Shown piece by piece: positions 1 to 21,324 of a DNA stretch of 64,000 bases. A program made the translations under genes and the position numbers. The DNA is taken from positions 11,593 through 75,592 of the forward strand of contig BTVJ01000026.1 in assembly GCA_045863395.1 (NCBI GenBank), in the 5' to 3' direction. Position 1 is the stretch's first letter, and each line of letters starts with the position of its first letter. Under the pieces are notes generated by a model. It did not search any database and had not been told where the DNA came from. It saw only the letters and a program-made list of their open reading frames with translations. The stretch is from Myxococcales bacterium. GTDB taxonomy: Bacteria; Myxococcota_A; UBA9042; JABWCM01; BTVJ01.

Positions 1-300
1 TCTCCCTGGATAACAACACCTCGGAGAGAAGTCTCCAGATCACCGCCCTCGGACGCGACAACTTCCGCTGGGTCGGACACGACGAGGCCGGCGAACATCT
101 CGCCATCCTCCAGACCCTGGTCAGCACCTGCGTCTCCTACGGCGTCAACCCACATGCCCACCTCACCGACGTCCTCCTCCGTGTCACCACCCACCCGGCC
201 TCCAAGCTCGACGAGCTGCTCCCGATGAACTGGCAGCCCCCTGGCTGAGCCTCCGGAGCCTCGCGCCCCGCCGACCAGCGACCCCGCCACCACCGTACCT
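1..300 (+). mobile_element. IS66-family insertion sequence, 3' portion truncated by the window edge; right boundary not resolved
   Basis: Contains the C-terminal end of an IS66-type transposase (next feature). The terminal inverted repeat was not identified, so the end coordinate is approximate. Confidence 0.5.
3..248 (+). CDS. IS66-family transposase TnpC, C-terminal fragment (5' end outside window)
   Basis: Frame beginning at nt 3 reads SLDNNTSERSLQITALGRDNFRWVGHDEAGEHLAILQTLVSTCVSYGVNPHAHLTDVLLRVTTHPASKLDELLPMNWQPPG, stop TGA at 246-248. This matches the conserved IS66 transposase C-terminal pattern (DNN-x-ER, ALGR-x-N, S/T-L-I-x-T-C, G-x-N/D-P, HP-x3-L-D/E-ELLP-x-NW), recalled from memory. 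Absent from the ORF track because it has no start codon in the window. Confidence 0.7.
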   Translation, partial: SLDNNTSERSLQITALGRDNFRWVGHDEAGEHLAILQTLVSTCVSYGVNPHAHLTDVLLRVTTHPASKLDELLPMNWQPPG

Positions 301-608
301 GCAGCATGCACGCCTCCGCGCTCACTGTAGCACGGCTGTGGATGTCCGCCCGACGGGGGAGCTCGGACGAGGCCTCGGTCATCGTTTCGGCCACCCGGGT
401 CTGTGGACCGAGCGGGCCGGCCTCCTGTGGGGGCCGCAAGGTCGACCGCCGGCCGGCCGAACGGCTCGTGCGCCCCTCGGTTCTGGCCAGGCATTGGACG
501 AGACGATGACCATGGCCTCGGACGATTACGAAGTTGTCGCGTCCGGGAGTGGTGACCTGAAAGTAGCGCACCGGCTCGAGCATCTCCGCGGAGTGGTGGT
601 AGAGGTAT

Positions 609-977
609 GTGAGCGTGTTTGTCGCCCTCCTCGACTTCCTCGGGCAGCGCCTCCCCCGGGTCGCCAACGACATCGGCCGCGAAGACGTCCCAAGCACCCA
701 CAAGCTCACCGAGCGCGCTATCAAGGCATTCCAGCGCCACTACCGAAGATTGGCCGGCTTCGAGTCCATCGAGACCGCGCGAACCACGATGACCGTGCTC
801 AGCTTCTTCTATCGGATGACACCCTGGCCGAACGCCATCGCCCCGGACGACTGCGGCAAGTGCCCCGTGGAGCGGGCCGGGTGGCAAGTCCGCGGCGTCC
901 CCGTGGCCGACTCCCTCCGCGGCTTCACAAAACCGGAGGATCCCGGCGACCCTCACGGCGACTCGCCCAAAGCCTGA
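609..977 (+). other. Protein-like ORF of unknown family in otherwise non-coding-looking DNA; possibly a decayed gene or mobile-element remnant
   Basis: Translation (…LTERAIKAFQRHYRRLAGFESIETARTTMTVLSFFYRMTPWPNAIAPDDCGKCPVERAGW…) has balanced composition, unlike the Arg/Pro/Gly-rich overlapping ORFs around it. No family recognised, and an upstream frame (…DDYEVVASGSGDLKVAHRLEHLRGVVVEV) suggests possible frameshifts. Confidence 0.2.
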
Positions 978-1619
978 TCCGGCGACGCCGAACCGCGGCT
1001 CGACCCGACCGGACCCTGACGCTGCGGAGCCCCGGCGCCGGGCCTCCTGCGTCGAACCGGGCACCCGCGCGCCCTGCGCTCCCGCGCCCTTGCACCCGTC
1101 CACCGCCTCGCGCCCCAACCGCCTCAGCCGGCGCCGCCCCCGGAGAGCAACGAGGCTCTTGCGAGGGGAGCTCGCGGAACGCTCTCTCACACGGAGAGGT
1201 CACTGGCGCCGAGAATCGGTTGACAGCGCATGGGGATGGGCGCACACTGCCATCGGGAAACACTTATGAGACATTCAATGTGTGACAGTGCCCTTCGAAC
1301 CGCAGCCAGGACCCGGCAACAGCAGCCGGATGAGAGTTCGATGAGCGCCGAGACGGGCGCTGGCGTGCGACTGGATGCCCGATCACTGTTCCTCTGCGAG
1401 ACATGGGAAGGTCTGGGGGATCGACCCCGCGAGAGTGGGACAACTCCGCGGCATGGCGCGACGAGCAGGTCCAACCTCGGTCTGCACGCCAGGAGCGGAG
1501 ACCAGAGACATGCGAGTCGTACCAAATGGTCAGTCGAAGCATCGTCGCCAGAGAGGTCTGCCGCGGAGGCGGTCCCCTCGACGTTATGTGGTTCGTGGTG
1601 TTCGTCTAAGGTCCCGTGG

Positions 1620-1758
1620 AGGAATAACCTGACCCACCGAGAGCGCCGAATCGCCCCGCTGGCGGTCTGCCGAGACCGCAGGCAGGGTGGGGCCCTTCCA
1701 CGGTCTCGGCAGGCCGCCAGCGGGGATGCAGCGGCGCTCGAATGGACAGGTTATTCCT
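1620..1758 (+). ncRNA. Candidate structured RNA, or imperfect palindromic DNA element, of unknown class
   Basis: Three nested, perfectly complementary helices separated by asymmetric internal loops: 1620-1631 (AGGAATAACCTG) with 1747-1758; 1641-1648 (GAGCGCCG) with 1732-1739; 1654-1678 with 1701-1725 (25 bp including one G-U); apical loop 1679-1700. About 45 bp paired within 139 nt, in a 1.7 kb stretch without a convincing CDS. Strand is undetermined. Confidence 0.3.
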
Positions 1759-1860
1759 GTACGGGCCCTAAACACATCGGAGTGAGTTCGGCCCGCAGGT
1801 GCTATTTACAGAGGAGTAATTGAGATGAGGATGCAGTCCAGTGGCTCGACAGAGCCCCAA

Positions 1861-1870
1861 CCCCCCCCCC
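1861..1870. repeat. Homopolymeric C10 tract (preceded by CCCCAA) about 90 bp upstream of the subtilase-like gene
   Basis: Read directly: agagccccaa cccccccccc gacc. Confidence 0.9.
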
Positions 1871-1958
1871 GACCACCCGCCCCAGAGCATCTGGTTGCGC
1901 AGCGCAGCCGCCCTTCCGGCTTATCAGTGTAGCTGTTTCAGCGCTTCTCCTGTTTGAC

Positions 1959-3935
1959 GTGTCGGTCACCGTTCGAGCCGATGGATTGATGAACCCTTCC
2001 AGTTCCCCAACCCTGGAGTGGGGTGAAGGTGTGGCAAGCGACGGAGGAGGGCTCTACTCGACCTTCGATTCCTCCAGCCTGATGGACGCTCCCCCAAAAG
2101 ACGCATCCTACAATGCCTTTAAAGAGACACAGATTGAGATGGCAGGCATGGGTGAATCGCTCAATGTTCGAGTCTACGCGAAGCTTCTAGATACTCCACC
2201 CGACGAAGTCATTGGGGTCACACTTCTCCTGAAGGAAATTGACTTCGAGTGGGGTAGCTTCGCAGGGGCGGGAGCAGTTGCTCGACATGCTCTCGTCGCC
2301 TCGCGGAAAGCCCAGCTCCAGCCGAGCCAGTACTCTGTGATCAAGGAGCTCGTGAATATTGGTGCCATCGAAATTTCTCCGAACTGGCTCGTCAACCAGA
2401 TTGACGTACAGGTCCATGCGCTGGCTGCAATCGACCTGGCTGCAATCCCTGGAGTCGAAGGCACTCGCTTGAACGCCGATACGAACACCGGCCGAGCTTA
2501 CGGAGGCAGCGAGTCGCAGGACGGAACATTGATTGCCCAGTTCTACGCCCAGAGCCTGGACGGCCGATACGGAGGTCGATCAAACAGCAGGATCCGAGTA
2601 GGTGTAATTGAACCAGGGCCATTGGCGCGGTACCATGCAACCTGGGACTACTCGACAGGCACCGGCTCGCGTGTAACCCGCTACCGCGAGTGTACCGCCA
2701 GCGGGTGCATTGACTCACCCAACAACGCAACCGTGTCTTCGCATGGGACCTGGGTGTCATGGGTGGCAACCGGTAGCATCGAGGCCGGACAGGATCCCGA
2801 CTTCCCGGGAACCTATACAGTCGACCAACGCAACCGCAGTGGCCACCTCAAGGAGTCACTGCTGTACTACTATCAGGCAACCGAGAATTGTGCATCAGGG
2901 AAGCGGGCAATCGAGCAGGCGGTGCTCGACGGGATCGATGTCATCAACTTGTCGCTAGCGTGGGGCGGATCCGAGTCCAACTGCAACTCGGAATATGATT
3001 GCTCGGGACTGAATGCCGCCATTGCCACGGCCCTAGACAGCGGAATTCTGACAGTGGCCTGTGGTGGGAACGCTCCCGACACGTCCGTCTGCCACGTTTG
3101 GTACCCTGGTCTCAGGACCGAAACTGTGGCCGTTGTTGCGCTTCTCAGCGATCCCTCGACGAGCCCGTATGACAGCCTCGGTCTACGCCCCGACGCTTCC
3201 GCGGGAGGGCTTCCGATCAGAACTTTCTTGGGTGCCGGCACGACGACACCAGCCATCGACTTGGCTGCTCCCGGCACATTCACAATGTATGCAACCGTGG
3301 CTCCACACGCCAATGGCTCCAGCACGATTGGAGGATGCTCATTCGCGACGCCTGTCATCACTGCGTCTGCGGGCGCTCTTCGCAACGCGTTTGCAGTGAT
3401 TGGCTGGTCCAACACCAACGCGAAGATGCTCATGGTGAATCTATTGCTGCTCGGCGACGGCTGGAGCGGAAGCGGAGTCCCGGGGTCGTATCCGCCAACT
3501 ACAGTATCGAGCCGCAGTGGATTCGGCCGGGTCCGCGCGCACTGGCCAGACGACGAGAGCATGGCCGGCGATTGGGGCTGGGGCTGGCGTGCCTTCACGA
3601 TCTACGAGGGGCAGACGGTAACGTGGAACGTGGGTACCTCGGGCCCTGAGAGCACCAGCATCACGGAGTGGAAGTGGGCTACGCTCTGGTTCGAGCCCGA
3701 TCTGCAGAACGTCGCCGACATCGACTTCGAGGTATGGGACATGTGCGCGCCAGGAGGCCCTGTCATGCTCCACGCTGACTGGTCGCTGAGCTTGCGCTCT
3801 CGGTTCAACCTCCTCGGACCCAGCATTGGAGGGAAGTGTCTGCAAATGCGAGCATACGGCTACAGGGTTCCTGCACAAGGAAGAGTGATCTATAGTGCCG
3901 ACTACTACCATTCGGGCACTCCGTCTATGTACTAG
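1959..3935 (+). CDS. Subtilase-like (peptidase S8 family) protein without a signal peptide, with about 200 aa of N-terminal sequence of unknown function
   Basis: 658-aa ORF starting at GTG 1959 (first ATG at 1989). S8-like motifs in order: RVGVIEPG (Asp-region position, Glu in place of the usual Asp), SSHGTWVSWVATGS (His motif), INLSLAWGGS, VACGGNAPDTS (Asn motif), GGCSFATPVITASAGAL (Ser motif). No N-terminal hydrophobic signal. G+C visibly lower than the flanking genes. RBS not obvious. Confidence 0.75.
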   Translation: MSVTVRADGLMNPSSSPTLEWGEGVASDGGGLYSTFDSSSLMDAPPKDASYNAFKETQIEMAGMGESLNVRVYAKLLDTPPDEVIGVTLLLKEIDFEWGSFAGAGAVARHALVASRKAQLQPSQYSVIKELVNIGAIEISPNWLVNQIDVQVHALAAIDLAAIPGVEGTRLNADTNTGRAYGGSESQDGTLIAQFYAQSLDGRYGGRSNSRIRVGVIEPGPLARYHATWDYSTGTGSRVTRYRECTASGCIDSPNNATVSSHGTWVSWVATGSIEAGQDPDFPGTYTVDQRNRSGHLKESLLYYYQATENCASGKRAIEQAVLDGIDVINLSLAWGGSESNCNSEYDCSGLNAAIATALDSGILTVACGGNAPDTSVCHVWYPGLRTETVAVVALLSDPSTSPYDSLGLRPDASAGGLPIRTFLGAGTTTPAIDLAAPGTFTMYATVAPHANGSSTIGGCSFATPVITASAGALRNAFAVIGWSNTNAKMLMVNLLLLGDGWSGSGVPGSYPPTTVSSRSGFGRVRAHWPDDESMAGDWGWGWRAFTIYEGQTVTWNVGTSGPESTSITEWKWATLWFEPDLQNVADIDFEVWDMCAPGGPVMLHADWSLSLRSRFNLLGPSIGGKCLQMRAYGYRVPAQGRVIYSADYYHSGTPSMY

Positions 3936-4012
3936 TCTCGACTCGGTAACCCAGTGGAGAGGGACAGTTCAGGACGAGGTACGCGGCCTGGTGGTACCAG
4001 ACAGGAGAAGTC

Positions 4013-4738
4013 ATGAAGAGTGTGAGGCATCTCGTGTTGACGGTGCTGGCATTGGTCGCCTGTGACGGCGCTCCGGAGTCCAGCTCCGCCGACAAGTCCG
4101 CAGTGGCGGACGGTTTGGACGCGGGCGCCACCGGCTGCGACGTGTGTGTGGCGGCTGAGACCCTGAACCCGACTCTCGGTCCGTGCGCGTCAGGTACGCT
4201 GCCAACCACGGGAAGGTTGTACGACCAGGCTGCTGACTGCGTGTCGCCGGAGACCACCGTGCTGGCATGCTACCCCGATATAAGTCCCGACGCCTACGCT
4301 ACGCAGGGCAGTGGCTGCTACGTGCACGAGCCAACGGGCGTTGCCTTCATCGCCGTCTGGGACGGTCCGGAACTCTCCGGGGAGTACCATCGCTGCGACG
4401 AGAAGTATTGGCAGATCCGTGAGGCGGCCGCCGAGGCGGAGCCCTGCGTGGACGGTGCTCCCGCTCAAGCATGTGGGAGTCCCGACGGGGCCGGTGAGTG
4501 TGGTGCCGGCTGCACTCCGGTCTACGGCGCGCCGTGGAACGTGGGTGAGGGCTGCGCTCAGGGGAAGGTGGAGTTGGGCTGGTGTACCTATTTGTATAGC
4601 GACGCTCCTCCCCACTGGTGCGTGGTGGATGAAGCAACAGGTACTGTCTACCTAGGCGTCAACGGAGTGCCTCACGGCCACCGACAGTGCACGGAGGCGG
4701 AGCTACCGGCTGCCTCGGCGGTGCAGTGGTGTCCTTGA
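4013..4738 (+). CDS. Cys-rich lipoprotein, function unknown
   Basis: AGGAGA RBS 6 nt upstream of ATG. N-terminus MKSVRHLVLTVLALVAC has a signal peptide with lipobox L-V-A-C. Mature part has many Cys, probably disulfide-bonded. Confidence 0.7.
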   Translation: MKSVRHLVLTVLALVACDGAPESSSADKSAVADGLDAGATGCDVCVAAETLNPTLGPCASGTLPTTGRLYDQAADCVSPETTVLACYPDISPDAYATQGSGCYVHEPTGVAFIAVWDGPELSGEYHRCDEKYWQIREAAAEAEPCVDGAPAQACGSPDGAGECGAGCTPVYGAPWNVGEGCAQGKVELGWCTYLYSDAPPHWCVVDEATGTVYLGVNGVPHGHRQCTEAELPAASAVQWCP

Positions 4739-5023
4739 AGTTGCGCTGCATGCCCAGTGTCGCACCCCGTTGCACGCAAGCTGTCCGAGAACTCCGTAGT
4801 GAATCCCGGAACGGAACGTCGTCATGATCGAGCCGAGGTCCGGGCTGTCGTTCCGTTGTTCCAGTGAGCGAGAGCCAGCGCGCTGAGAGGGTGGTGCCAC
4901 CCGGGCTGTGGCGGGGGGCCGACAAGCGGCGACAACTTCGTCGACGACCCGGGGATGTCCACACGCCGATCTTGCGTCCCGTGGTGCCCCCGGCTATGGT
5001 GCCCCCCTTCCCGGAGCCGACCG

Positions 5024-7357
5024 ATGACGCCCGCGACGGACCGCACACCCTGGGTGCTCGCCAGCCTGCTCGGCGCCGTCGCCGCGGGGCTCGTGCTGGT
5101 GGTGCATGCGGTCGTGACGGGCGACGGGGCGCTCGACGTGCCGGGCGCCGGGGACACGGCCGCTGCCATCCTCTTCCTCTTCGGTACGACGTGGGCCGTC
5201 GCTCTGACCTGGGGCCTGGCCGTGGGAGTGGTGACCGGGGCCGTCCACGCGACCTTGCATGGGTGGTGGCAAGGCTTCCGCGCCCGCCTCGCCGACCCCG
5301 AGCGCGACGTCTCCACCGCCGCCGGCCTGCTCGCTGCGGCGCTGGCTGCAGCGGTCTGGATGGTGCTCTTCGTGCGCCTCTACGCGAGCCGCGACGAGGA
5401 GTTCCTCATCAAGGTGGGCACGGCGTCCCGCTTCTTCGCCGTCGGGACGGCCGCGCTCCTCGCCGTCGCCGTGGCTGCCTGGTTCCCGGTCCACCGCCTG
5501 CTCCGGTGCGCCCTCGTCTGGCGCATCGACCGCCTCCGCTCCGCCGCGTGGCCCCTGACGCGGCGCCTCACGGTGGCTGCCCTGGCGTGCGCCGCGCTCG
5601 CCGTCGCCGCCGCCGTGTGGCTCATGGAGTCCAACGAGGAGTTGGCCAATGTGCGGCGCCTCCCGCTGTACCTCCTCACGTTGGCGCTGCTCCACGGGGT
5701 GGCGACCGCCGCCCTGCGCCGCCTCCACCTGCGCCACGGGTGGGCGCTCCTCGGGGCGCCTGTCATCGTCGTGATCCTCACCGTCCTGGGCATTGACCGG
5801 GTGCCCGCCGCCCACGAGGCCGCCGAGACGCGCTCCGACGTGCAGGCCATGCTCTTGCGCTTGCTCCGAGGCCCGCTGGACCTCGACGGGGACGGCTACG
5901 CGGCGCTGCTCGGGGGCGGCGACTGCGACGACTGGGACGCGGCGGTGGGGCCGCACGCCGGTGAGGTGGCGGGCAACGGCGTCGACGACGACTGCCAGGA
6001 CGGGGACGCGGACCCGACGGCCGCCGCCGCGTGGGAGGCCGACCCGTCGCTGCTCGCCGAGGACGAGCCGCCGAGCGCCCCCGTCGACACGCCCAGGCCC
6101 ATCCACGGGACCGACGCGCCCGCCGCCCCAGTCACCGCCGACGCGCCCGCGGGGCCCGGGACCGTCGAGGCCCCCACGCCCCGCCCGGACGCGCCCCCGC
6201 CCCTGCCGCGCAAGGGCCTGAACGTGCTCTTCATCGTCGTCGATACGCTGCGCGCCGACCATGTCGGCTTCTACGGCTACGAGCGGGACACGACCCCGGC
6301 CATCGACGCGCTGGCGCGCCAGTCGGTGGTGTTCCGCTACGCCTACGCCCAGGCCAACAACACGCCCCGGTCCATGCCGTCGCTCCTGACGTCGCGCTTC
6401 CCGAGCGCCATCCGGTGGGTGCGCCTCGACCGCAACTACCCCCAGCTCAAGGACGCCGAGCACACCGTCGGGGAGTCCCTGGCGGATGGGGGCTACCGGG
6501 TCGAGGCGGAGACGTCGCACTACTACTTCGTGCCCAAGCGCAGACTCGACCAGGGCTTCCACGAGTGGAGCAACCCCGGGGCGGGCACCATCGCTGAGGC
6601 CAACGAGGCGGTGACGGCGCCCAAGCTGCTGCCCCGGGCCATGGCGCGCCTGGAGAAGCTGTCACAGCGCGAGGAGCCCTGGTTCCTGTTCGTGCACTTC
6701 TTCGAGCCCCACGCCTCGTACATCCCGCACAAGCCCCCGGCGGACTTCGGGCGCACGCTGAAGGACCGCTATGACGGCGAGATCCGGTTCACCGACGACC
6801 ACGTGGGCCAGCTCCTGGCGAAGCTGGACGCGCTGGGGCACCGGGAGGACACGCTCGTCATCCTGACCTCGGACCACGGGGAGGCCTTCCGCGAGAAGGG
6901 CTACTTCTTCCATGGCCACTCGGTCTACAACGTGGAGCTGCGGGTCCCGCTCGTCATGCGCCTGCCAGGCGTCGACCCGCGGGTCATCGACGAGCGGGTG
7001 GCGCTGCTCGACGTCGTCCCGACCATGCTGTCCGCCATCGGGCTGCCCATCGCCCCGACCATGCAAGGTGTGGACCTGGTCCCTACCATCCTGCACGGCG
7101 AGCGGCGCGGCCTGCCCATCTACGCGGAGCTGCTGCCCTACCCCAACTGGCCGGAGGACCAGCGCGCGTTGATCCTCGGCCACCACAAGGTGCTCTACAC
7201 GAAGAAGGGCAACGTCTGGGAGCTCTACGACATCCAGGCCGACCCCTTCGAGAAGGAGAACCTGTTCCGCACCCACTCGAAGGCGCAGACCTACAAGAAG
7301 GCGCTGCTCGACTGGATGGCGCTCCACGCCCACCCGAAGGCCATGCGCGGGCCGTGA
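5024..7357 (+). CDS. Polytopic membrane protein with C-terminal sulfatase-fold (alkaline-phosphatase superfamily) domain and a central DGDG/DDDC putative metal-binding motif
   Basis: ORF 4955..7357; preferred start ATG 5024 (GGAG 9 nt upstream). Several N-terminal hydrophobic helices, then DLDGDGYAALLGGGDCDDWDAAVGPHAGEVAGNGVDDDCQDGDAD, a Pro/Ala-rich linker, then sulfatase-like motifs LNVLFIVVDTLRADHVGFYGY, NNTPRSMPSLLTS, TSDHGE. The signature position normally Cys/Ser before TPxR is Asn. Confidence 0.8.
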   Translation: MTPATDRTPWVLASLLGAVAAGLVLVVHAVVTGDGALDVPGAGDTAAAILFLFGTTWAVALTWGLAVGVVTGAVHATLHGWWQGFRARLADPERDVSTAAGLLAAALAAAVWMVLFVRLYASRDEEFLIKVGTASRFFAVGTAALLAVAVAAWFPVHRLLRCALVWRIDRLRSAAWPLTRRLTVAALACAALAVAAAVWLMESNEELANVRRLPLYLLTLALLHGVATAALRRLHLRHGWALLGAPVIVVILTVLGIDRVPAAHEAAETRSDVQAMLLRLLRGPLDLDGDGYAALLGGGDCDDWDAAVGPHAGEVAGNGVDDDCQDGDADPTAAAAWEADPSLLAEDEPPSAPVDTPRPIHGTDAPAAPVTADAPAGPGTVEAPTPRPDAPPPLPRKGLNVLFIVVDTLRADHVGFYGYERDTTPAIDALARQSVVFRYAYAQANNTPRSMPSLLTSRFPSAIRWVRLDRNYPQLKDAEHTVGESLADGGYRVEAETSHYYFVPKRRLDQGFHEWSNPGAGTIAEANEAVTAPKLLPRAMARLEKLSQREEPWFLFVHFFEPHASYIPHKPPADFGRTLKDRYDGEIRFTDDHVGQLLAKLDALGHREDTLVILTSDHGEAFREKGYFFHGHSVYNVELRVPLVMRLPGVDPRVIDERVALLDVVPTMLSAIGLPIAPTMQGVDLVPTILHGERRGLPIYAELLPYPNWPEDQRALILGHHKVLYTKKGNVWELYDIQADPFEKENLFRTHSKAQTYKKALLDWMALHAHPKAMRGP

Positions 7358-7364
7358 CGCCGCC

Positions 7365-8207
7365 TCACCGCGACCCGAGCAGGAAGGGCAGGAGCCACGG
7401 CGCATAGCGCTTGATGGCGCGGCGGGCCGCGATGTTCTCGGGGCCGCGCCCACCGGCCATCAGCACTCCGGCGACGAGGCGCGCCCGGTCCTCGGGGGGA
7501 GCCATGACGCCCAACAGATCCGGCTCCACCTCGAGCTGCCCCGTGGCGTGGAACACGCCGCACGCGAGCCCCAGCGCAACTACCCAGAGGCGCGGGTCGC
7601 CGTCGTCGTCCGGGACGAGCTCCTCCGCCTGGTCGAAGAGGTCCAGCACGGTCTGGTCGGGGATGGCGTCGGGCTCGACGCCGAGGGGGTCATGCCAGAG
7701 CGCGAGCATCCACGCCTCACGGGCCGCGTCCCGCTCGCCCGCCTGGTGGTGCGCCATGCCCAGGAGCAGGCGGGACTCCGTGTCGTCGGGGCGGGCGTGG
7801 ATGGTGGCGGCCAGCGAACGCACGGCCTCGTTGGTCGCGCCGGCCTCGAGCCACAGGGAGCCCGCGGTGACGCCGTCCTGGGCGCCCCCCTCCCCGCGGG
7901 CGGTCTCCAGGGCCGCCGCCGCCCCCGCGAGGATCTTCGAGCGGAGCCACGGCTCCCCCTCGACGCCCTCCACGGCGGCGCACGCGAGCAGGTGCTCATA
8001 GGCGCCGAGCTTGCTGCGCTTGCGCGGGACCGCGGCCAGCGCCCTGGCCAGCGGCAGGACCCCCTCGTACAGCGCCCGACCCTCCAGGAGACGCACCGCG
8101 TCGGTGAACCGCAGCTCGGCCATCAGGGCCCGCGCGGCCCGGTGCACCTCGGCGTCCGCCGAGAACAGGTCGAGCTGATCGGCTTGCCTCTGCCCCGGGT
8201 CCTCCAT
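7365..8207 (-). CDS. Hypothetical protein (helical repeat-like)
   Basis: ORF 7365..8348 on minus strand; start chosen at internal ATG (MEDPGQRQADQLDLF…) because the upstream 47 residues are Arg/Ala-rich. No family recognised. Confidence 0.5.
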   Translation of the reverse strand: MEDPGQRQADQLDLFSADAEVHRAARALMAELRFTDAVRLLEGRALYEGVLPLARALAAVPRKRSKLGAYEHLLACAAVEGVEGEPWLRSKILAGAAAALETARGEGGAQDGVTAGSLWLEAGATNEAVRSLAATIHARPDDTESRLLLGMAHHQAGERDAAREAWMLALWHDPLGVEPDAIPDQTVLDLFDQAEELVPDDDGDPRLWVVALGLACGVFHATGQLEVEPDLLGVMAPPEDRARLVAGVLMAGGRGPENIAARRAIKRYAPWLLPFLLGSR

Positions 8208-8441
8208 GGCACCACCTCCACGTCCATGGTAGCACGAGCGGAGCGCCGCCGTGCGCTGCTTGTCTCTGCGCGCTGCCGCTGACAAATTGGCGCGCGCGTC
8301 TCGACGATCTGTGTCAAACTGGCGCTGCTGGTCGGCGGCGCCCTCCAAGGTGCCGCAGATTCAAGCAGATCCGCCGTGGCACCCTTCTTGCGTCGGCAAG
8401 CGCGCCCCCCGACGCTCGGAGGGGCCACCGCGGAGGAAGGC

Positions 8442-9854
8442 ATGGCGTCGAGCGCACTGGCAGAGCGGCTCCCCTGGAGCCCCGTCGAGGAGGTCATGGA
8501 GCGGAGCGGGCTCACCGGGCGACCGGTCATCCTCGTGGTCGACGACGACACGTCCAACCTGGCGTCGCTGCAGCGGGTCTTCGAGCGTGAGGAGCTGGAC
8601 GTCATCGCGGCGGAGGACGGGCGGGCGGCCCTCGACATCCTGCGGCGGCAGCGGGTGGACGTGGTCCTCACGGACGTCATGATGCCGGGCATCACGGGCA
8701 TGGACCTGCTCAAGACCGTCCGCACCGTGTCGCCGGAGGCCGAGGTGATCCTCATGACCGCCTTCGGCACCATCGAGACGGCGGTCGAGGCCATGAAGGA
8801 CGGCGCCTACGACTTCATCACCAAGCCCTTCAAGCGCATCCAGGTCGTACGCTCCGTGCGCCGCGCCCTGGAGAAGCAGTCCCTGCTGACAGAGAACCGC
8901 GCGCTCCGCGAGCGCCTGGAGACCATGCTCCAGGAGAAGGACATCATCGGCTCCAGCGTGGCCATCCGGAAGGTGGTCGACATGGTCCACCAGGTGGCGC
9001 CGAGCGCCGCCACGGTGCTGCTGCAGGGCGAGAGCGGCACGGGCAAGGAGCTGTTCGCGCGAGCCATCCACCGCCACAGCGCCCGGTCGGGCGGCCCCTT
9101 CGTCGCCATCAACTGCGCCGCCATCCCCGAGAGCATCCTGGAGAGCGAGCTGTTCGGGTATGAGCGCGGGGCGTTCACCGGGGCGGCGCAGCGCAAGGAG
9201 GGGCGGTTCAAGCTCGCCGACGGCGGCACGCTGCTCCTCGACGAGATCGGGGAGGTCGCTCCGGCGGTCCAGGTCAAGCTGCTGCGGGTGCTCCAGGAGG
9301 GCGAGATAGAGCGCCTCGGCGGGACCCAGCCGGTCAAGGTGGACGTGCGCATCGTCGCGGCGACCAACAAGAACCTGGCCGAGGAGGTGAAGCGGGGACG
9401 CTTCCGCGAGGACCTCTTCTACCGGCTGAACGTCATCGCCATCAACCTGCCGCCTCTTCGGGAGCGCCGGGACGACATCCCGCTTCTGGCCACTCACTTC
9501 CTGCGGATCTTCTGCGACAAGAACCGGAAGGAGATCCGTGGTTTCCAGCGGGACGCGCTGGAGGCGCTCGCCGGCTGGGACTGGCCGGGCAACGTGCGGG
9601 AGCTGGAGAACACCATCGAGCGGGCCGTGGTGCTGTGTCGCGGCGATACGGTGCGGCGCGAGGACCTGCCCGAGCACATCGCGGAGTCGGACAATGCCCC
9701 GCTGCCGCACATCACGGTGGCGCTGGGCACCCCCCTGGAGGACGTGGAGAAGCAGCTCATCCGGGAGACCCTGCGGATGACGAACGGCGACAAGCGCCTG
9801 GCCGCACAGCTCCTGGGCATCGCCACGCGGACCATCTACAGGAAGATCGACTGA
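8442..9854 (+). CDS. Sigma-54-dependent Fis-family response regulator (NtrC-like: receiver + AAA+ + HTH)
   Basis: GGAGGAAGG RBS before ATG 8442. Receiver (VILVVDDD…DVVLTDVMMPG), sigma54-interaction AAA+ motifs (LLQGESGTGKELFARAIH, ESELFGYERGAFTGA, GGTLLLDEIGE, FREDLFYRLNV), C-terminal HTH (LLGIATRTIYRKI). Confidence 0.9.
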   Translation: MASSALAERLPWSPVEEVMERSGLTGRPVILVVDDDTSNLASLQRVFEREELDVIAAEDGRAALDILRRQRVDVVLTDVMMPGITGMDLLKTVRTVSPEAEVILMTAFGTIETAVEAMKDGAYDFITKPFKRIQVVRSVRRALEKQSLLTENRALRERLETMLQEKDIIGSSVAIRKVVDMVHQVAPSAATVLLQGESGTGKELFARAIHRHSARSGGPFVAINCAAIPESILESELFGYERGAFTGAAQRKEGRFKLADGGTLLLDEIGEVAPAVQVKLLRVLQEGEIERLGGTQPVKVDVRIVAATNKNLAEEVKRGRFREDLFYRLNVIAINLPPLRERRDDIPLLATHFLRIFCDKNRKEIRGFQRDALEALAGWDWPGNVRELENTIERAVVLCRGDTVRREDLPEHIAESDNAPLPHITVALGTPLEDVEKQLIRETLRMTNGDKRLAAQLLGIATRTIYRKID

Positions 9855-9953: not shown

Positions 9954-10226
9954 GCGCGCGGGCCAGGGTCCAGCCGAGCCGCGGCGGGGCGTGCAGATCG
10001 GAGCTCCCGCGAGGGTCCGGCGCTCTGCACCCCCGGGGCCGCGGTGACCATGACGCGCGACGGGCGGTCCGTGGCGCGGTTGTTGCAGTCAGGGGCTACG
10101 CCCTAGCCCTCGCCGCTCGGCATGCGGGGGGCGACTGCTGGCTTCCATCCTGGACGACGACTCCGAGCGAGTGGGTGGGGGCTCATCCACTCACGCTCCG
10201 GATCGGGCATGGTGTGACGCGGCCTC

Positions 10227-11210
10227 ATGGAGACCCTGTTCAAACGGTACTTCTGGGTGATCAACCTGCTCGCGCTGGCGGCGGCCGCGTGGATGCTGGC
10301 GACCACCATCAATGAGTACGTGAGCAGGAAGCTCCTCGCGGTGCCGGCGGCGGAGCTCTCTGCCGACAAGAGCAAGGGCGGCGCCCTGTCCCCCCGAACC
10401 CTGTGGGCGGACAACATCTCAGACGAGCTCAAGTCGCGGCGGCCGTTCAACTCCGACCCGCCCGCCGAAGAGAAGGTAGACGAGGGAGGCCCCGTCGACG
10501 AGGATCCCGTGGAGGAGGCGCCGGAGGAGGAGCAGGTCATCGAGTGCGACCAGCTCGGCGTGAACCTCATCGGCACGATGATCTCGCCGGAGCCCTCCAT
10601 GTCCATGGCGACCATCGAGGCGGAGGGCGCCACCAAGCTCATCCGCCTTGGCACGTCCGTCCTCGACAAGGCGGAGGTCAGAGAGATCTCGCGGCGCTAC
10701 ATCCGCCTCTCGCAGGGCGACAAGGACTGCGTCGTGCGCCTCTGGGGCGAGAAGGCCCCCCCGGGGATGCGCCCTGGCGCCCGCCCGGGCATGCCGCCCA
10801 TGCCCGTCGCGCGGCCCGCCCAGAACCCGGCGGCGGCAGCCCCCCGGCAGCCCACCCAGGACTACGCGGCGGGCGTCAAGCAGAAGAGCGAGACGGAGTT
10901 CGAGATCAGCCGCGCCATGATCGACCAGAACCTGGAGGACCTGAGCACGCTCGGAATGCAGGCCCGCATCGTGCCCAACTACCGCAACGGCAAGTACGAG
11001 GGGTTCAAGCTGGTCGGGGTGCGCCCGAACAGCCTCTACCGGGCCATCGGGATCCGCAGCGGCGACGTCATCAAGAGGATCAACGGGCGTGAGATCAACA
11101 GCCCGAACAAGGCCATCGAGCTCTTCGAGAGCCTCAAGAACTCGAGCAACATCGCCCTCGACATCGAGCGCCGGGGGCAGCTCTCGACGATGCAGTACAC
11201 GATCAAGTAG
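10227..11210 (+). CDS. gspC: Type II secretion system protein GspC-like (N-terminal membrane anchor, C-terminal PDZ)
   Basis: N-terminal hydrophobic helix (YFWVINLLALAAAAWMLATTI), Pro/Ala-rich linker, C-terminal PDZ-like segment (GIRSGDVIKRINGREINSPNKAIELFESL). First gene of the gsp operon. Confidence 0.75.
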   Translation: METLFKRYFWVINLLALAAAAWMLATTINEYVSRKLLAVPAAELSADKSKGGALSPRTLWADNISDELKSRRPFNSDPPAEEKVDEGGPVDEDPVEEAPEEEQVIECDQLGVNLIGTMISPEPSMSMATIEAEGATKLIRLGTSVLDKAEVREISRRYIRLSQGDKDCVVRLWGEKAPPGMRPGARPGMPPMPVARPAQNPAAAAPRQPTQDYAAGVKQKSETEFEISRAMIDQNLEDLSTLGMQARIVPNYRNGKYEGFKLVGVRPNSLYRAIGIRSGDVIKRINGREINSPNKAIELFESLKNSSNIALDIERRGQLSTMQYTIK

Positions 11211-11274
11211 ATGCACGTGGCCCGGCCGCGGCCCGCTCCGGCGCGGCCCGCCTCAACACGAACTCGGAGTCCCT

Positions 11275-14031
11275 GTGCGCGTCTCACTGTCCAACATCTC
11301 GGCGTCTGCCCGCTCAGTCGCACGCCTGCTTGCGGCGCTGATCGTCCTGGCCGCGTCCGTCGCCCAAGGGCAGCAGCCGGTGCCCGTGCGGCCCGCGCCC
11401 GTCAACCCCCCGGTCGATCCCGGCGGGGGCGCGGGGGTGATCAACAAGGGCGGGGCCCAGCCGCTGCCCTTCGACCCCAAGCAGCTCGGGCAGCCCGGCG
11501 TCGGTGAGGCGCCCATCGCGGGAGAGGCCGGCTCGGACGTCTCCCCCACGCCCGTCGATGACATGATCACGTTCAAGTCCAACTACGAGAAGGACGTGAA
11601 GTGCATCAAGCTGCCGCTGAACGCCAAGATCAACATCGACTTCGAGGACGCGGACCTGCTCTCCGTCGCCAAGTTCATCGGGTGCATCACGGAGCAGAAC
11701 TTCATCCTGGCGGGTGGCCTGAAGGGCAAGACGATCACGATCATGAGCCCCAAGCCGGTGACCGCCTATGAGGCGTACCGGGCGTTCCTGGCGGCCCTCG
11801 AGATCAACCAGATGACGATCGTTCCGACGGGCAAGTTCCTCAAGATCGAGGACGTCGGCAAGGCCAAGCAGGACACCCTGCCCATCTACGGGCCGCGCCA
11901 GAGCGTGCCCGGGGACGAGCGCTTCGTCACGCGGCTCGTCCAGCTCGAGCACATCGGCGCCGACGAGATGTCGCAGGTGCTGATGAAGTTCAAGACCGCC
12001 CAGGGCGACATCTCCACCTACCCGCCGACCAACACGCTCATCGTCACGGACACGGGCGTGAACATCAAGCGCATGCTCGGGCTGCTCAAGGAGCTGGACG
12101 TCCCGACGGGCAAGGAGCGGGTGTGGATCCGCCAGGTCGAGTACGCCCAGGCGACGGAGCTGGTCGACAAGCTCATGCAGGTGTTCGGCGAGCAGCAGGG
12201 GGCAGCGGCGAAGGCGTCGGCGGCGGAGGCAGCCCGGCGGCGCCTCGAGGCGCGGCGGGCGGCCCAGGCGCGCGGGGCGCAGCAGCCAGCAGCGGCGAGC
12301 GCCCCGATGGCGGGCGAGCAGGGGCTGGAGCCCGGCGCCGTGTCCGTGTCGAAGATCCTGGCCGACGAGCGCACGAACCAGCTCATCATCGTGGCCAACC
12401 GCACCAGCTACTTCAAGCTCGACAAGCTGATCCGCAAGCTGGACGTGCCGATCCCCGGGGAGGGGCAGATCCACATCCACTACCTGGAGAACGCCGACGC
12501 CGACGAGATCTCCAGCACCCTGTCCTCGCTCACGCAAGGGGGGGCGGCCGGTGGCGCGCGAGGCGCAGGTGCCCGCCCGCGGACGGGCGCCCCCGCGGCG
12601 GCGGGCGCTCCCGCGGGCGCAGCGGGCGGCGCGGGCGGCTCGGCCGCGCTCTTCGAGGGCGAGGTGAAGATCACGGCCCACAAGGAGACCAACTCCCTCG
12701 TCATCGAGGCGTCGCTCAAGGACTACCTGAACCTGAAGAAGGTCATCCAGCGCCTGGACGTGCGCCGCAAGCAGGTCTACGTGGAGGCGGTGATCATGGA
12801 GATCACGTCGTCCAAGGACCAGAAGCTCGGCATCAGCGGGTCGGCGGGGACCACGTTCGACATCGACGGCAACGAGGTGCCGCTGCTGTTCGGGCTCGGC
12901 GGCCTGGGCATCTCGTCCTTCGACCTGCAGCAGCTCCAGAAGGGCGGCATCGCGGCCGGCATGCAGGGGCCGCTGGTCGATGTGGATCCGGGCTCGGCCG
13001 CGCGCTCCGGCGCCCTGTCGCTGCCGACCTTCGGGTTCCTGATCCAGGCGCTGCACTCGAACTCCGACGTCAACATCCTGTCGACGCCGCACATCCTGAC
13101 CACGGACAACGAGGAGGCGGAGATCCAGGTGGGCAAGCAGATCCCGTACCGTGCCTCCGGGGTTGGGGGCGGGCTCGGCTCCCTGGCGTCGCTGGCCGGC
13201 CTCGGCGGCGGCCTGACCCAGAACGCGGGCAGCGCCTTGGGCGGCCTCGGCGGCCTCGGCGGGCTGGGGGCCCTCGGCGCCCTGGGCGGCCTCGGTACGA
13301 CCCAGTACGTGGACGTGGACCTGACCCTGAAGATCACCCCGCACATCAACGAGAGCGACTTCGTGCGGCTGGAGATCGACCAGGAGATCGAAGACGTCGA
13401 GAGCATCCAGGCGGATCTGGGGCCGACGACCAGCCGCCGGAAGGTCAAGAACACCGTGGTGGTGAAGGACCAGCAGCCCGTGGTCATCGGTGGCCTGATC
13501 CGCGACACCGAGACCGAGGGCGTGGACAAGGTGCCCTTCCTCGGCGACATCCCCGTGCTCGGCTACCTGTTCCGCAAGAACGTGCGGACGACGGAGAAGA
13601 AGAACCTGCTGATGATCATCGTGCCGACCATCATCAGCGATCCGAGCGACCTCAAGCGCATCCACGAGAACCGCATGCAGGAGATGCGGGACTTCGGCGA
13701 CCAGCTCGCAACCAAGAAGAAGGAGTACATGGGCCAGGTGGACTACCGCAAGAAGAGCGGAATCCTGCAGCACATGAACTCGGTTGTCTCCAGAGCGCGC
13801 ACGGATCGCGAGCTGTTGGAGAAGACCACCTTCGACCAGTCGGAGCTGGACCTCATCGGGCCGCCGGAGACCCACGACATCGAGTACGACCCCTACGAGG
13901 CGGAGAAGGAGCGCCGGGCCCGCGCCCGTGGGGCGGCGAAGCCCGCCGCGACGGAGCCTGCCGCGCCTGCGCCTGCCACCGTCCGGCCCGAGACGGACTC
14001 CATCGAGATCGATCCGGACGACGGGCCATGA
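11275..14031 (+). CDS. gspD: Type II secretion system secretin GspD
   Basis: Start set at in-frame GTG 11275 (GGAG 8 nt upstream), giving signal peptide VRVSLSNISASARSVARLLAALIVLAASVAQG. The ORF-track start 11089 would overlap gspC by 120 nt with an Arg/Ser-rich N-terminus. N-domains, a Gly/Ala-rich insert and the secretin domain (IPVLGYLFRKNVRTTEKKNLLMIIVPTII) are present. Confidence 0.85.
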   Translation: MRVSLSNISASARSVARLLAALIVLAASVAQGQQPVPVRPAPVNPPVDPGGGAGVINKGGAQPLPFDPKQLGQPGVGEAPIAGEAGSDVSPTPVDDMITFKSNYEKDVKCIKLPLNAKINIDFEDADLLSVAKFIGCITEQNFILAGGLKGKTITIMSPKPVTAYEAYRAFLAALEINQMTIVPTGKFLKIEDVGKAKQDTLPIYGPRQSVPGDERFVTRLVQLEHIGADEMSQVLMKFKTAQGDISTYPPTNTLIVTDTGVNIKRMLGLLKELDVPTGKERVWIRQVEYAQATELVDKLMQVFGEQQGAAAKASAAEAARRRLEARRAAQARGAQQPAAASAPMAGEQGLEPGAVSVSKILADERTNQLIIVANRTSYFKLDKLIRKLDVPIPGEGQIHIHYLENADADEISSTLSSLTQGGAAGGARGAGARPRTGAPAAAGAPAGAAGGAGGSAALFEGEVKITAHKETNSLVIEASLKDYLNLKKVIQRLDVRRKQVYVEAVIMEITSSKDQKLGISGSAGTTFDIDGNEVPLLFGLGGLGISSFDLQQLQKGGIAAGMQGPLVDVDPGSAARSGALSLPTFGFLIQALHSNSDVNILSTPHILTTDNEEAEIQVGKQIPYRASGVGGGLGSLASLAGLGGGLTQNAGSALGGLGGLGGLGALGALGGLGTTQYVDVDLTLKITPHINESDFVRLEIDQEIEDVESIQADLGPTTSRRKVKNTVVVKDQQPVVIGGLIRDTETEGVDKVPFLGDIPVLGYLFRKNVRTTEKKNLLMIIVPTIISDPSDLKRIHENRMQEMRDFGDQLATKKKEYMGQVDYRKKSGILQHMNSVVSRARTDRELLEKTTFDQSELDLIGPPETHDIEYDPYEAEKERRARARGAAKPAATEPAAPAPATVRPETDSIEIDPDDGP

Positions 14032-14049
14032 CCAGCGGCTTCAGCAGAC

Positions 14050-15834
14050 GTGAGGATGGGTGACGTGGTGCTGTCCGCGCACATGGACATGGCCCCGAGG
14101 CGCCTCGGCGAGATCCTTCTCGAGCGCGGCAAGGTGACCCGCTCGCAGCTCGACGCGGCGCTCCAGTCCCAGGCCGACAAGGGGGGGCGCCTCGGCGAGG
14201 TGCTGATCGCGATGCGCTCCTGCCAGGAGGAGGACGTCCTGGAGGCCCTGTCCGTGCAGCTCGGGATCCCCATGATCACGGGCATCCAGCTCGACCAGAT
14301 GGACCCGGCCATCGTCGCGCCGCTGTCGATCACCTACGCCAAGCAGCACGTCTTCCTGCCGATCGAGCGCACGGACGACGCGCTGATCGTCGCGGTCAAC
14401 GATCCCCTCGAGATCTACGCCCTCGACGATCTGCGCACCATCTACGACCGTCCCGTGGAGCCGCGCATCGCCTCGTCGACCGTCATCCTGGAGGCCATCA
14501 ACAAGATCTTCGACCGGCGCGCCGGCGCCGATCAGGTCATGGACGAGCTCGAGACCCAGGACCTGGACAAGGTCGCCCACGATCTGGAGGCCGAGGCCCA
14601 GGACATCCTCGACGCCGACGACGAGGCGCCGATCATCCGGCTCGTCAACTCGGTCCTGAACCAGGCGGTCAAGGAGAAGGCCAGCGACATCCACATCGAG
14701 CCCTTCGAGAAGTTCGTCAGCGTGCGGTTCAGAAAGGACGGCGTGCTCCACGACATCATCCACGCGCCGAAGCGCTTCCAGTCCTCCATCACGAGCCGCA
14801 TCAAGATCATGGGGGACTTGAACATCGCCGAGAAGCGGCTTCCCCAGGACGGCCGCATCCGCATCAAGGTGGCCGGGCGCGACATCGACATCCGCCTCTC
14901 CACCGTCCCGACCAGCCACGGCGAGCGGCTCGTGCTCCGGCTCCTCGACAAGACCAACACGGTGCTCGATCTGCGCCGCCTCGGGTTCTCGAAGGAGAAC
15001 TTCGAGAAGATGGAGCAGCTCCTCAAGCGACCGCACGGCATCCTGCTCGTGACCGGCCCGACGGGAAGCGGCAAGACGACCACCCTGTACGCCGCGCTGA
15101 CCAGCATCAACTCGCCGGACAAGAACATCCTGACCGTCGAGGATCCGGTGGAGTACCAGATCCACGGCATCGGGCAGATGCAGGTCAACCCGAAGATCAA
15201 CTTCACCTTCGCCTCGGGGCTCCGCGCCATCTTGCGCCAGGACCCGGACGTGGTGCTCGTCGGCGAGATCCGCGACCTGGAGACGGCGGAGATCGCCGTC
15301 CAGGCGTCGCTGACCGGCCACCTCGTGTTCTCGACGGTCCACACCAACGACTCGGCGAGCACGTTCACGCGGCTCATCGACATGGGGGTCGAGCCGTTCC
15401 TCATCGCGTCGTCCGTGGCCGCCTGCGTGGCCCAGCGCCTCGTGCGGCGCATCTGCAAGCACTGTCGCGAGCCATACACGCCCGCCGACGCGGAGCTGGA
15501 TCAGCTCGGGCTGCTGGGGCCCACGGCGAGGTTCGCGCCGCTCCTGCGGGAGCGCTTCGGGGCCGAGCGGCCCATGTTCTTCCGCACGGTGGGCTGCAAG
15601 GAGTGCGCGGGCACGGGGTACTCGGGGCGCGCCGCCATCTATGAGATGCTGGTCGTCAGCGACGAGATCCGCACGCTGGTCATGCAGAACGTCTCGTCCA
15701 CGGAGATCAAGAAGAAGGCCGTGGCCTTGGGCATGTTGTCGCTCCTCGACGACGGGGCGCTCAAGGTCATCGACGGGGAGACCACCGCCGAGGAGGTCTT
15801 CCGCGTGGCCAGCGTTCGGGACGAGGTGTTCTAG
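14050..15834 (+). CDS. gspE: Type II secretion system ATPase GspE
   Basis: Walker A GPTGSGKTT, Asp box, Walker B VVLVGEIRD, His box, tetracysteine CKHC…CKEC. Start ambiguous between GTG 14050 and ATG 14056 or 14083. Confidence 0.95.
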   Translation: MRMGDVVLSAHMDMAPRRLGEILLERGKVTRSQLDAALQSQADKGGRLGEVLIAMRSCQEEDVLEALSVQLGIPMITGIQLDQMDPAIVAPLSITYAKQHVFLPIERTDDALIVAVNDPLEIYALDDLRTIYDRPVEPRIASSTVILEAINKIFDRRAGADQVMDELETQDLDKVAHDLEAEAQDILDADDEAPIIRLVNSVLNQAVKEKASDIHIEPFEKFVSVRFRKDGVLHDIIHAPKRFQSSITSRIKIMGDLNIAEKRLPQDGRIRIKVAGRDIDIRLSTVPTSHGERLVLRLLDKTNTVLDLRRLGFSKENFEKMEQLLKRPHGILLVTGPTGSGKTTTLYAALTSINSPDKNILTVEDPVEYQIHGIGQMQVNPKINFTFASGLRAILRQDPDVVLVGEIRDLETAEIAVQASLTGHLVFSTVHTNDSASTFTRLIDMGVEPFLIASSVAACVAQRLVRRICKHCREPYTPADAELDQLGLLGPTARFAPLLRERFGAERPMFFRTVGCKECAGTGYSGRAAIYEMLVVSDEIRTLVMQNVSSTEIKKKAVALGMLSLLDDGALKVIDGETTAEEVFRVASVRDEVF

Positions 15835-15900
15835 TCCGCGCCCGTGTGCCTCCGCTGACCCACGCACGTACAAGGCGACCGCCGGAGATCGGGAGAGAGC

Positions 15901-17163: not shown

Positions 17164-17220
17164 GCCGCCCACGGCACTTGGGTCCACATTGGCAGGCCCC
17201 CGGGCGGGGCGGAGGAGAGC

Positions 17221-17628
17221 ATGAGGAAGTTCTGGGATCGGACGGCGGCGCGCACGCTCCGCAATCAGCGCGGCATGACGCTCATCGAGATCATGGTGGT
17301 CATCGCGATCATCGGAATCCTGTCGACGGCCATCGGCTACGGCGTCGTGACCTACCTGCAGAAGGCGAAGATCGACTCCTGCAAAGCGCAGCTCCGCACC
17401 ATCGCCAACGCCATCGACATGTACGCCGCGTCGGATGACTACCCCAATGACCTGGGGTCGCTGACCGAGGGGAACAACGCCCCGCTCAAGGAGAGTCAGC
17501 TCAAGGACCCGTGGAAGCAGGAGATCACCTACAACCACCCGGCGCAGCGCGGGGGGGGGGAGTTCGACCTGTGCTCCAAGGGGCCCGACAAGAAGCAGAA
17601 CACCGACGACGACATCTGCCACGAGTAG
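17221..17628 (+). CDS. gspG: Type II secretion major pseudopilin GspG
   Basis: Prepilin leader and cleavage site RNQRG|MTLIEIMVVIAIIGIL, GspG core; GGAGGAGAGC RBS. Confidence 0.9.
   Translation: MRKFWDRTAARTLRNQRGMTLIEIMVVIAIIGILSTAIGYGVVTYLQKAKIDSCKAQLRTIANAIDMYAASDDYPNDLGSLTEGNNAPLKESQLKDPWKQEITYNHPAQRGGGEFDLCSKGPDKKQNTDDDICHE
17551..17560 (+). repeat. G10 homopolymeric tract inside gspG (encodes GGG in AQRGGGEF)
   Basis: gcgc gggggggggg agttc read directly; longest G-run noticed in the window. Confidence 0.9.
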
Positions 17629-17637
17629 GGCGACGGC

Positions 17638-21270: not shown

Positions 21271-21324
21271 CGGTCAGGCATGCTCGGGCGGGTGCGTGGC
21301 CACGGGCAGCAGGCAGGGCAGGGC

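Follow-up and report, generated by a model that had tools for sequence, protein, structure and literature searches.

The 64,000-nucleotide (nt) stretch of Myxococcales DNA analysed here (contig BTVJ01000026.1, positions 11,593 to 75,592; called the window below) carries at 1959..3935, on the + strand, an open reading frame (ORF) of 658 amino acids (aa) plus stop that starts with GTG and encodes a homologue of the S8 subtilases. In our assessment this gene probably corresponds to an intact pro-subtilase of the exported type, with a Glu-His-Ser (E-H-S) triad, whose leader has been split off by a frame break in a homopolymer. The layout of its family comprises a lipoprotein or secretory leader, an extension of about 60 aa, an I9-like propeptide, the S8 domain and a C-terminal beta-barrel like those of KP-43 and Tk-SP. 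Directly downstream lies a gene for a Cys-rich lipoprotein, here called the partner. All features of these two genes given below are on the + strand.

The assignment to the S8 family, already proposed in a first-pass annotation of the window, was confirmed by a match to the Pfam profile Peptidase_S8 (PF00082; E=9.3e-14, 51.8 bits against a cut-off of 21.8), by an hhalign comparison with subtilisin BPN' (probability 99.5%) and by the predicted subtilisin alpha/beta fold. The Pfam alignment is restricted to profile positions 49-272 (aa 255-495) and does not cover the Asp motif. NCBIfam offers no specific model for this protein (the mycosin and PatA models give weak matches below their own cut-offs), and no Pfam or NCBIfam profile matches the N-terminal 200 aa or the C-terminal domain. 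A word-indexed search retrieved six close relatives of the subtilase. Run with the family profile, such a search yielded nothing but generic S8 proteins (PatA/PatG, AprX) and no link to SprP, the Pseudomonas enzyme considered below. An exhaustive profile search of 1.84 billion representatives led to a family of 414 proteins at E<=1e-30, each representing a cluster at 50% identity and matched from the N-terminal region to the C-terminus. The taxonomically named sources of these proteins are few and all correspond to metagenome-assembled genomes (MAGs) of Myxococcota (Polyangiaceae, Polyangiales and Myxococcales). The citrate synthase encoded in the window is 100% identical to P0237, a protein of an uncultured Myxococcales bacterium. 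The family is large, uncharacterised and exported, and has no curated model beyond the generic S8 profile. The PADLOC models of anti-phage defence systems matched neither the protease nor its partner.

The catalytic residues were assigned by comparing a family profile, corresponding to a 120-sequence alignment, with subtilisin BPN' by hhalign. In this alignment the BPN' sequence used behaves as that of a subtilisin. The segment RIRVGVIEPG pairs with NVKVAVIDSG of BPN', which places Glu218 (codon GAA, 2610..2612) on Asp32, and the same comparison equates His262 (2742..2744) with His64, Asn371 (3069..3071) with the oxyanion-hole Asn155 and Ser461 (3339..3341) with the nucleophile Ser221. These positions are also supported by the family alignment, and an independent alignment based on hidden Markov models (HMMs) puts the same Glu on the catalytic Asp of Vpr (PDB 8jmw). 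The first motif of the classical Asp-His-Ser triad of S8 enzymes is therefore lacking its Asp, and the protein shows instead the E-H-S pattern, with Glu at the Asp position and the His and Ser motifs kept. The first-pass annotation had read the motifs in this way, pointing to the Glu of VGVIEPG and to recognisable His, Asn and Ser motifs.

When the window protein was aligned by MAFFT with 152 relatives (n=153), the acid column contained E in 109 and D in 27 sequences, and the other residues are nearly invariant (H262 and N371 in 147/153 each, S461 in 152/153). The D-bearing sequences are dispersed among E-bearing neighbours in the family, indicating that E and D have been interchanged repeatedly. 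This interchange, together with the near-invariance of His, Asn and Ser, suggests that the Glu behaves as a catalytic acid and does not mark a dead site. Judging from these alignments, Glu218 is a trait of the family and not a lesion of one copy. Ser461 would then act as nucleophile and His262 as base, with Glu218 orienting the His as Asp32 does in subtilisin, and we infer that the protein is a proteolytic enzyme.

One could suppose instead that the Glu disables the triad and that the protein has a non-catalytic role, e.g. in binding; the canonical Asp is indeed absent, and inactive subtilase homologues exist, such as CspC (PDB 6mw4). We consider this very improbable, given the near-invariant His, Ser and oxyanion Asn among the relatives and the E/D interchange at the acid position. 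Ser-His-Glu triads are functional elsewhere among hydrolase folds, and a subset of subtilases reportedly has the catalytic Asp replaced by an equivalent Glu. The Prokaryotic Subtilase Database recognises the E-H-S subtilases as a class (Siezen, Renckens & Boekhorst 2007, PMID 17348030, as cited in PMC3937732), and according to that citation the Glu variant is not new and has been a named class since 2007. An E-H-S enzyme, SprP (PA1242) of Pseudomonas aeruginosa, with the predicted triad E262/H299/S499, is active on skim milk and on Suc-AAPF-pNA, and the S499A exchange abolishes this activity (PMC3937732), which further argues against a pseudo-protease.

The window protein resembles SprP in having Glu in place of the catalytic Asp next to ordinary His and Ser motifs, in a region of about 200-230 aa without family match between leader and S8 domain, in the presence of a C-terminal extension and in a His-Ser spacing of about 200 residues (199 in the window protein, 200 in SprP). 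SprP differs by its type I signal peptide, its length of 590 aa and a C-terminal extension of only about 60 aa, whereas the window family has lipoprotein leaders and a beta-barrel domain of about 125-160 aa. The domain of unknown function of SprP has been described as confined to Pseudomonas and Halomonas (PMC3937732); the likeness drawn here concerns layout and motifs.

A first AlphaFold2 (AF2) prediction using seven close homologues had a predicted local distance difference test (pLDDT) score of 47.6 and was unusable; it was replaced by a model from the 120-sequence alignment (pLDDT 91.1, predicted template modelling score 0.84). In a Foldseek comparison of this model with the PDB, the top match was ProN-Tk-SP (E=2e-22, 635 alignment columns), followed by KP-43, SubHal and unprocessed pro-subtilisin E. 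The length of the alignment to ProN-Tk-SP implies that the propeptide is included. The S8 catalytic domain corresponds to aa ~205-500 (2571..3458). It is preceded by an I9-like propeptide (aa 84-173, 2208..2477) with a beta-alpha-beta-beta-alpha-beta succession, modelled as strands at 84-91, 137-141, 147-153 and 166-171 and helices at 106-133 and 154-157. The family HMM alignment includes the Vpr propeptide, and the propeptides of Tk-SP and pro-subtilisin E fall within the Foldseek alignments. The similarity of aa 129-173 to the second half of the BPN' propeptide is weak, with the correct register (hhalign E=0.0016), and the Inhibitor_I9 profile (PF05922) gave no match to the subtilase at E<=1. 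The region before the propeptide (aa 1-80, 1959..2198; about aa 20-80, or ~60 aa, in the family) is predicted to form a small beta/alpha sub-domain that is conserved in the family alignment, has no Pfam match and belongs to no known family.

The model, together with the Foldseek and HMM alignments, thus resolves the N-terminal 200 aa, which the first-pass annotation had called an unknown region, into a family-specific extension, an I9-like propeptide and a linker; what stands of the earlier description is that no Pfam family matches there. Of the two marks by which an ordinary secreted protease would have been recognised, a propeptide and a normal Asp in the triad, the former is present and the latter was not found.

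At the other end of the protein, a C-terminal beta-sandwich or jelly-roll domain (aa ~535-658, 3561..3932) with the conserved C596 and C627 and a terminal SADYYHSG motif packs in the model on the catalytic domain, as in KP-43 (PDB 1wmd) and Tk-SP (PDB 3afg, 9ues). These two enzymes share this C-terminal beta-jelly-roll domain with the window protein and differ in having an Asp-His-Ser triad, in their 15-19% identity, in having neither the additional N-terminal extension nor the conserved set of Cys, and in not being lipoproteins. The Cys set of the window family comprises six residues (245, 250, 342, 378, 596 and 627), each kept in at least 138 of the 153 sequences. They probably form three disulfides, a feature typical of extracytoplasmic proteins.

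Export signals are widespread in the family. Of the 105 full-length members, at least 64 carry a hydrophobic stretch followed by a lipobox, and in 13 others the N-terminus is hydrophobic; of the 28 left over, many are clearly truncated gene models whose first residue lies within the leader (e.g. MFVFVGC, MALALTAC, MVLGAC). All five close homologues with complete N-termini (P0002-P0006) have lipoprotein leaders ending in L-x-[GA]-C. In the window copy, neither a lipobox nor a signal peptide was found from 1959 onwards: the most hydrophobic 12-residue stretch within the first 45 aa has a mean Kyte-Doolittle (KD) hydropathy of 0.37. The statement that the protein has no signal peptide is therefore accurate for the ORF as listed, but translation shows that the frame continues upstream without stop (1824..1958) and encodes a signal-like core there. 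This extension contains no ATG, GTG or TTG. Its positions 1920-1955 encode LISVAVSALLLF, a signal-peptide-like h-region in the context ...PPFR-LISVAVSALLLF-DVSVTVRA/DG, with a mean KD of 2.74 over 12 residues, a value reached by only 1.2% of the stop-free 45-aa windows in the six frames of the whole window. The hidden h-region lies about 30 residues before the conserved DGGG motif, where the relatives have their signal peptide, with a spacing similar to that of the homologues. Such a hidden leader, if functional, would correspond to a type I signal or an anchor. Initiation at a non-canonical codon in frame before the h-region was also considered and rejected, the sole candidate codon being ATC.

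A plausible start is present in another frame. The sequence contains a Shine-Dalgarno (SD) motif, AGGAG (1812..1816), 8 nt upstream of the ATG at 1825; AGGAG also precedes the partner gene at 4013, whereas the GTG at 1959 and the ATG at 1989 have no comparable SD. The ATG at 1825 opens a short ORF of 35 codons (1825..1932), whose translation begins MRMQSSGSTEPQPPPRPP... and whose frame is -1 with respect to the subtilase ORF; we propose that it holds the original start and the n-region of the leader. It contains a run of ten C (C10, 1861..1870), the likely site of a 1-nt frame break. One extra C in this run joins the 1825 ORF in frame to the subtilase (MRMQSSGSTEPQPPPPTTRPRASGCAAQPPFRLISVAVSALLLFDVSVTVRADGLMNPSS...), and the corrected N-terminus, with C11, reads MRMQSSGSTEPQPPPPTTRPRASGCAAQPPFRLISVAVSALLLFDVSVTVRADG.... 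From this arrangement of frames, the true 5' end of the subtilase gene is probably the ATG at 1825, its leader being cut off by a one-base frame break that would most probably be located in the C run. Such a break between the SD-ATG at 1825 and the ORF leaves the listed ORF without leader, so that it looks cytoplasmic, and in the C10 state the complete pre-pro-enzyme would not be made without slippage. As a statement about biology, the cytoplasmic appearance noted in the first-pass annotation is not supported, given the lipobox-bearing relatives, the six conserved Cys, the lipoprotein partner and the frame break itself. We take it as most likely that this copy is in an off state or was inactivated recently, and not that its product has adapted to the cytoplasm. 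A full-length product would presumably be exported, fold on its propeptide, cleave itself and then hydrolyse peptide bonds.

The frame break at C10 does not look like an assembly error. The 64 kb contain two homopolymers of at least 10 nt, the C10 run and a G10 run at 17551-17560; the latter is in frame within a gspG-like gene that is intact, and this speaks against systematic miscalling of homopolymers. The C10 run is read through in two independent Logan contigs, L008, which is 100% identical to the window, and L001, which represents a second haplotype with 7 single-nucleotide polymorphisms (SNPs). Two further contigs, L009 (from its positions 1-10) and L010 (positions 1-12, window 1859-1870), start at the run or 2 nt before it. 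The two haplotypes found in public metagenomes differ within the subtilase at 2079, 2574, 2847 and 3027 (L41M, G206R, L297I and T357A) and downstream at 4739, 4787 and 4831. The exclusively non-synonymous changes in the subtilase, next to an identical partner protein, are suggestive of relaxed constraint on the protease, with too few changes for a test.

Several observations weigh against a leader lost by a frame break in the C run. No lipobox Cys follows the hidden h-region, unlike in most relatives. The run is C10 in every contig that reaches it (the window, L001, L008, L009 and L010, covering two haplotypes), and no in-frame allele was seen. The catalytic body is undecayed, with no stops and all conserved residues present, which is unexpected for an old pseudogene, and the four non-synonymous and zero synonymous differences between haplotypes are too few for a selection test. 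As for the catalytic part, the triad and the putative disulfides are read from sequence alignments.

The state of the gene can be read in three ways: as a fixed frameshift, as a reversible switch or -1 slippage, or as internal initiation. The lack of SD motifs at the internal starts and the build of the protein for export favour the first two. In the second reading, the C10 run would be a contingency tract alternating between C10 and C11 by slipped-strand mispairing, or a site of -1 ribosomal or transcriptional slippage, so that some cells or transcripts make the full exported pre-pro-enzyme. The tract has the form known from phase-variable genes, a homopolymer of 9 nt or more near the 5' end of the coding region whose length sets the frame; for tRNA-Pro, C CCC CCC is a perfect slippery site in the -1 direction, and a shift by -1 brings the ATG at 1825 and the ORF into one frame. 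The undecayed gene body and the rarity of runs of at least 10 nt are in line with this, as is the fact that two of the four metagenome contigs reaching the tract start at it or within 2 nt, which fits length heterogeneity. A relative 42% identical to the window protein, on the Polyangiaceae MAG contig WQYL01000074.1 (L005), moreover carries T7 followed by C14 at 5717-5737, ending one base before its ATG, at the expected SD position. On the other hand, the tract showed no variation in length among the contigs that reach it, breaks at homopolymers also arise commonly as artefacts of assembly, and the 90 nt downstream fold no better than shuffled sequences (z=0.33), giving no stimulatory RNA structure; the coincidence of poly-C tracts at two loci was noticed post hoc. 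We know of no homopolymer phase variation described in Myxococcota. Switching or recoding of this kind seems unlikely to us, and it is quite unlikely that the tract is a working on/off switch deciding the leader of a horizontally acquired E-H-S protease that stands beside a Cys-rich lipoprotein partner.

Internal initiation would mean that the subtilase is truly leaderless, starting at GTG 1959 or ATG 1989 as a signal-less zymogen that would either act within the cytoplasm or pass the inner membrane via a non-classical pathway. In its favour, the 658-aa ORF is intact and retains every catalytic and structural residue, C10 is found in both haplotypes, which come from different samples, and a gene caller placed the start at ATG 1989 (P0001). 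There is also a model for such a protein in PopC of Myxococcus xanthus, a myxobacterial subtilase with no predicted signal peptide and an N-terminal part without recognisable domain, which reaches the periplasm and is secreted, and whose secretion is blocked by PopD in a complex with it (PMC6434023). The likeness to PopC concerns general traits, however, and several features do not fit: no SD precedes 1959 or 1989, compared with the AGGAG 8 nt before ATG 1825; the relatives are lipoproteins with six conserved Cys; the h-region encoded in frame upstream would be without purpose; and the loss of the leader in the window corresponds to a frame break, the relatives having leaders. The partner also differs from PopD, being a predicted exported lipoprotein with its own signal, whereas PopD is described only as complexing and blocking PopC. 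We consider a leaderless enzyme improbable and retain the split leader as the preferred interpretation.

The partner gene (4013..4738), identified from the ORF list, its leader and comparisons, starts 77 nt after the subtilase and is probably co-transcribed with it. It encodes a 241-aa lipoprotein with 17 Cys, whose N-terminus reads MKSVRHLVLTVLALVAC/DG and which contains two copies of a Cys module of about 90 aa; the G+C content at its third codon positions (GC3) is 0.74. The partner protein is identical in five metagenome contigs. No match to Pfam or NCBIfam was found for the partner proteins of the family, and the window partner has no significant match among PDB sequences. A gene for a Cys-rich lipoprotein lies directly downstream of the protease, on the same strand, at about 11 of the 13 distinct family loci in genomes and metagenomes.

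The partners belong to at least three unrelated types. The first, weakly related to the Cys module of the window partner and with one or two copies of it, is encoded on L006 (7818-8291), L014 (2102-2671), L015 (3354-3857), L018 (2117-2980) and perhaps L005 (7908-8600). Partners of the second type have an FGE-sulfatase domain and are found on L002 (12081-12938), L003 (2642-3526) and L004. The third corresponds to a small CPEVFP...CGTWP family, present on L007 (first copy at 7774-8064), L021 (2257-2709) and L022 (5773-6237). On L007, three tandem and near-identical genes for Cys-rich lipoproteins of about 96 aa (MKPLAL[IV]LVLLGSGC...) follow the protease at 7774-9000. On L002, from a Polyangiales-type MAG, a reverse-transcriptase gene (RVT_1), with neighbouring ORFs of great size (631 aa and more than 1990 aa), adjoins the protease/FGE pair at 13538-22061 on the minus strand; this region may be a defence or retroelement module.

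We favour the idea that the Cys-rich lipoprotein is a cognate inhibitor or partner of the protease, by analogy with the potempins of Tannerella forsythia, small lipoproteins that bind KLIKK peptidases and of which one inhibits the subtilase mirolase (PMC9890683; mirolase-PotC, PDB 8ehe). In both cases the gene of a secreted protease is closely linked to that of a small lipoprotein, here with a linkage kept across most relatives, and the potempin-protease linkage thus provides a precedent for such a role. The ASP/ORF2 chaperone pair of Aeromonas (PDB 3wqb) is a second precedent for a small protein linked to a protease. Potempin genes lie upstream of the peptidase, whereas the partner genes lie downstream here; no similarity to potempins was detected for the partners with Pfam or for the window partner with PDB sequences, and, unlike potempins, the partners of the window family include several unrelated types, among them the FGE-sulfatase-domain proteins.

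The two genes of this cassette are located in a block of lower G+C content (~1200..~4900; 0.53-0.66, compared with 0.70-0.76 in the flanks), recognised by its composition. The subtilase gene has a G+C content of 0.593 and a GC3 of 0.67, against GC3 values of 0.82-0.98 for typical genes of the window, and family genes are lower in G+C than their own locus at 9 of the 11 loci examined. These values fit a cassette moving between genomes, and the low G+C of the two-gene block of about 3.7 kb supports a horizontal acquisition, as had been suspected from the contrast with the neighbouring genes; both cassette genes would have arrived together on it. No tRNA gene and no flanking direct repeats marking an integration site were found, nor was an integrase or transposase recognised among the few ORFs checked in 1-1958, which leaves the island without an identified mobility mechanism. 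Strains free of the island were sought by exact look-up of flanking proteins: the sulfatase (with two candidate starts) and GspE gave no record, and the left-flank ORF was found only on L008.

That left-flank ORF (603-977, 122 aa, GC3 0.86) is the sole one with a host-like GC3 to the left of the island and has no Pfam match; inverted repeats at 36-65/530-559 and 363-393/495-525 lie near it in the left flank (1-1200). A near-perfect nested hairpin of about 160 nt (1609-1769, with arms at 1609-1644/1734-1769 and 1654-1678/1701-1725) is located 55 nt upstream of ATG 1825. It has a minimum free energy of -128.5 kcal/mol (z=-11.6 against shuffled sequences) and no second copy in the window, and could correspond to an element resembling miniature inverted-repeat transposable elements or repetitive extragenic palindromes, a terminator or an insertion scar. 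An Rfam search of 1-5000 gave only sub-threshold chance matches, of which the miRNA-like ones reflect the long hairpin, and no family for the hairpin; neither a sigma-70 promoter nor an intrinsic terminator was detected in 1000-5000.

On its right side the island is bordered by a sulfatase gene (4955-7357, 800 aa), whose product has an extended hydrophobic N-terminus and a weak metal-binding motif of the MopE type. The presence of a sulfatase at the island edge, with FGE-sulfatase-domain partners at other family loci, may be a coincidence. It is followed by an ORF for a sigma-54-type activator, NtrC-like by sequence (8376-9854), and then by a type II secretion cluster (10218-23502), about 6 kb downstream of the island, with genes for the GspD secretin, GspE, GspF, a GspG-like pseudopilin, GspK and a PilM/GspL-like protein.

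As it stands, this finding is ordinary to moderately interesting, the sole potential surprise being a switch in the C run. It corrects the annotation of the window gene from a cytoplasmic oddity to an exported-type E-H-S pro-subtilase with a split 5' end. It also sets the bounds of a family that is large, with 414 or more clusters at 50% identity. Its natural alternation of E and D constitutes a data set on the tolerance of subtilases for either acid, and a Cys-rich lipoprotein gene accompanies it almost everywhere. Should the C10 run prove to be a switch, it would, as far as we know, be without precedent in Myxococcota as a homopolymer contingency locus and would define a protease-lipoprotein cassette under such control, and the T7-C14 tract at the start codon of a relative would hint that this control recurs in the family. 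An inhibitory role of the partner, or a switch in the C run, would make the cassette a source of new insight into how surface proteolysis is controlled in predatory or social bacteria.

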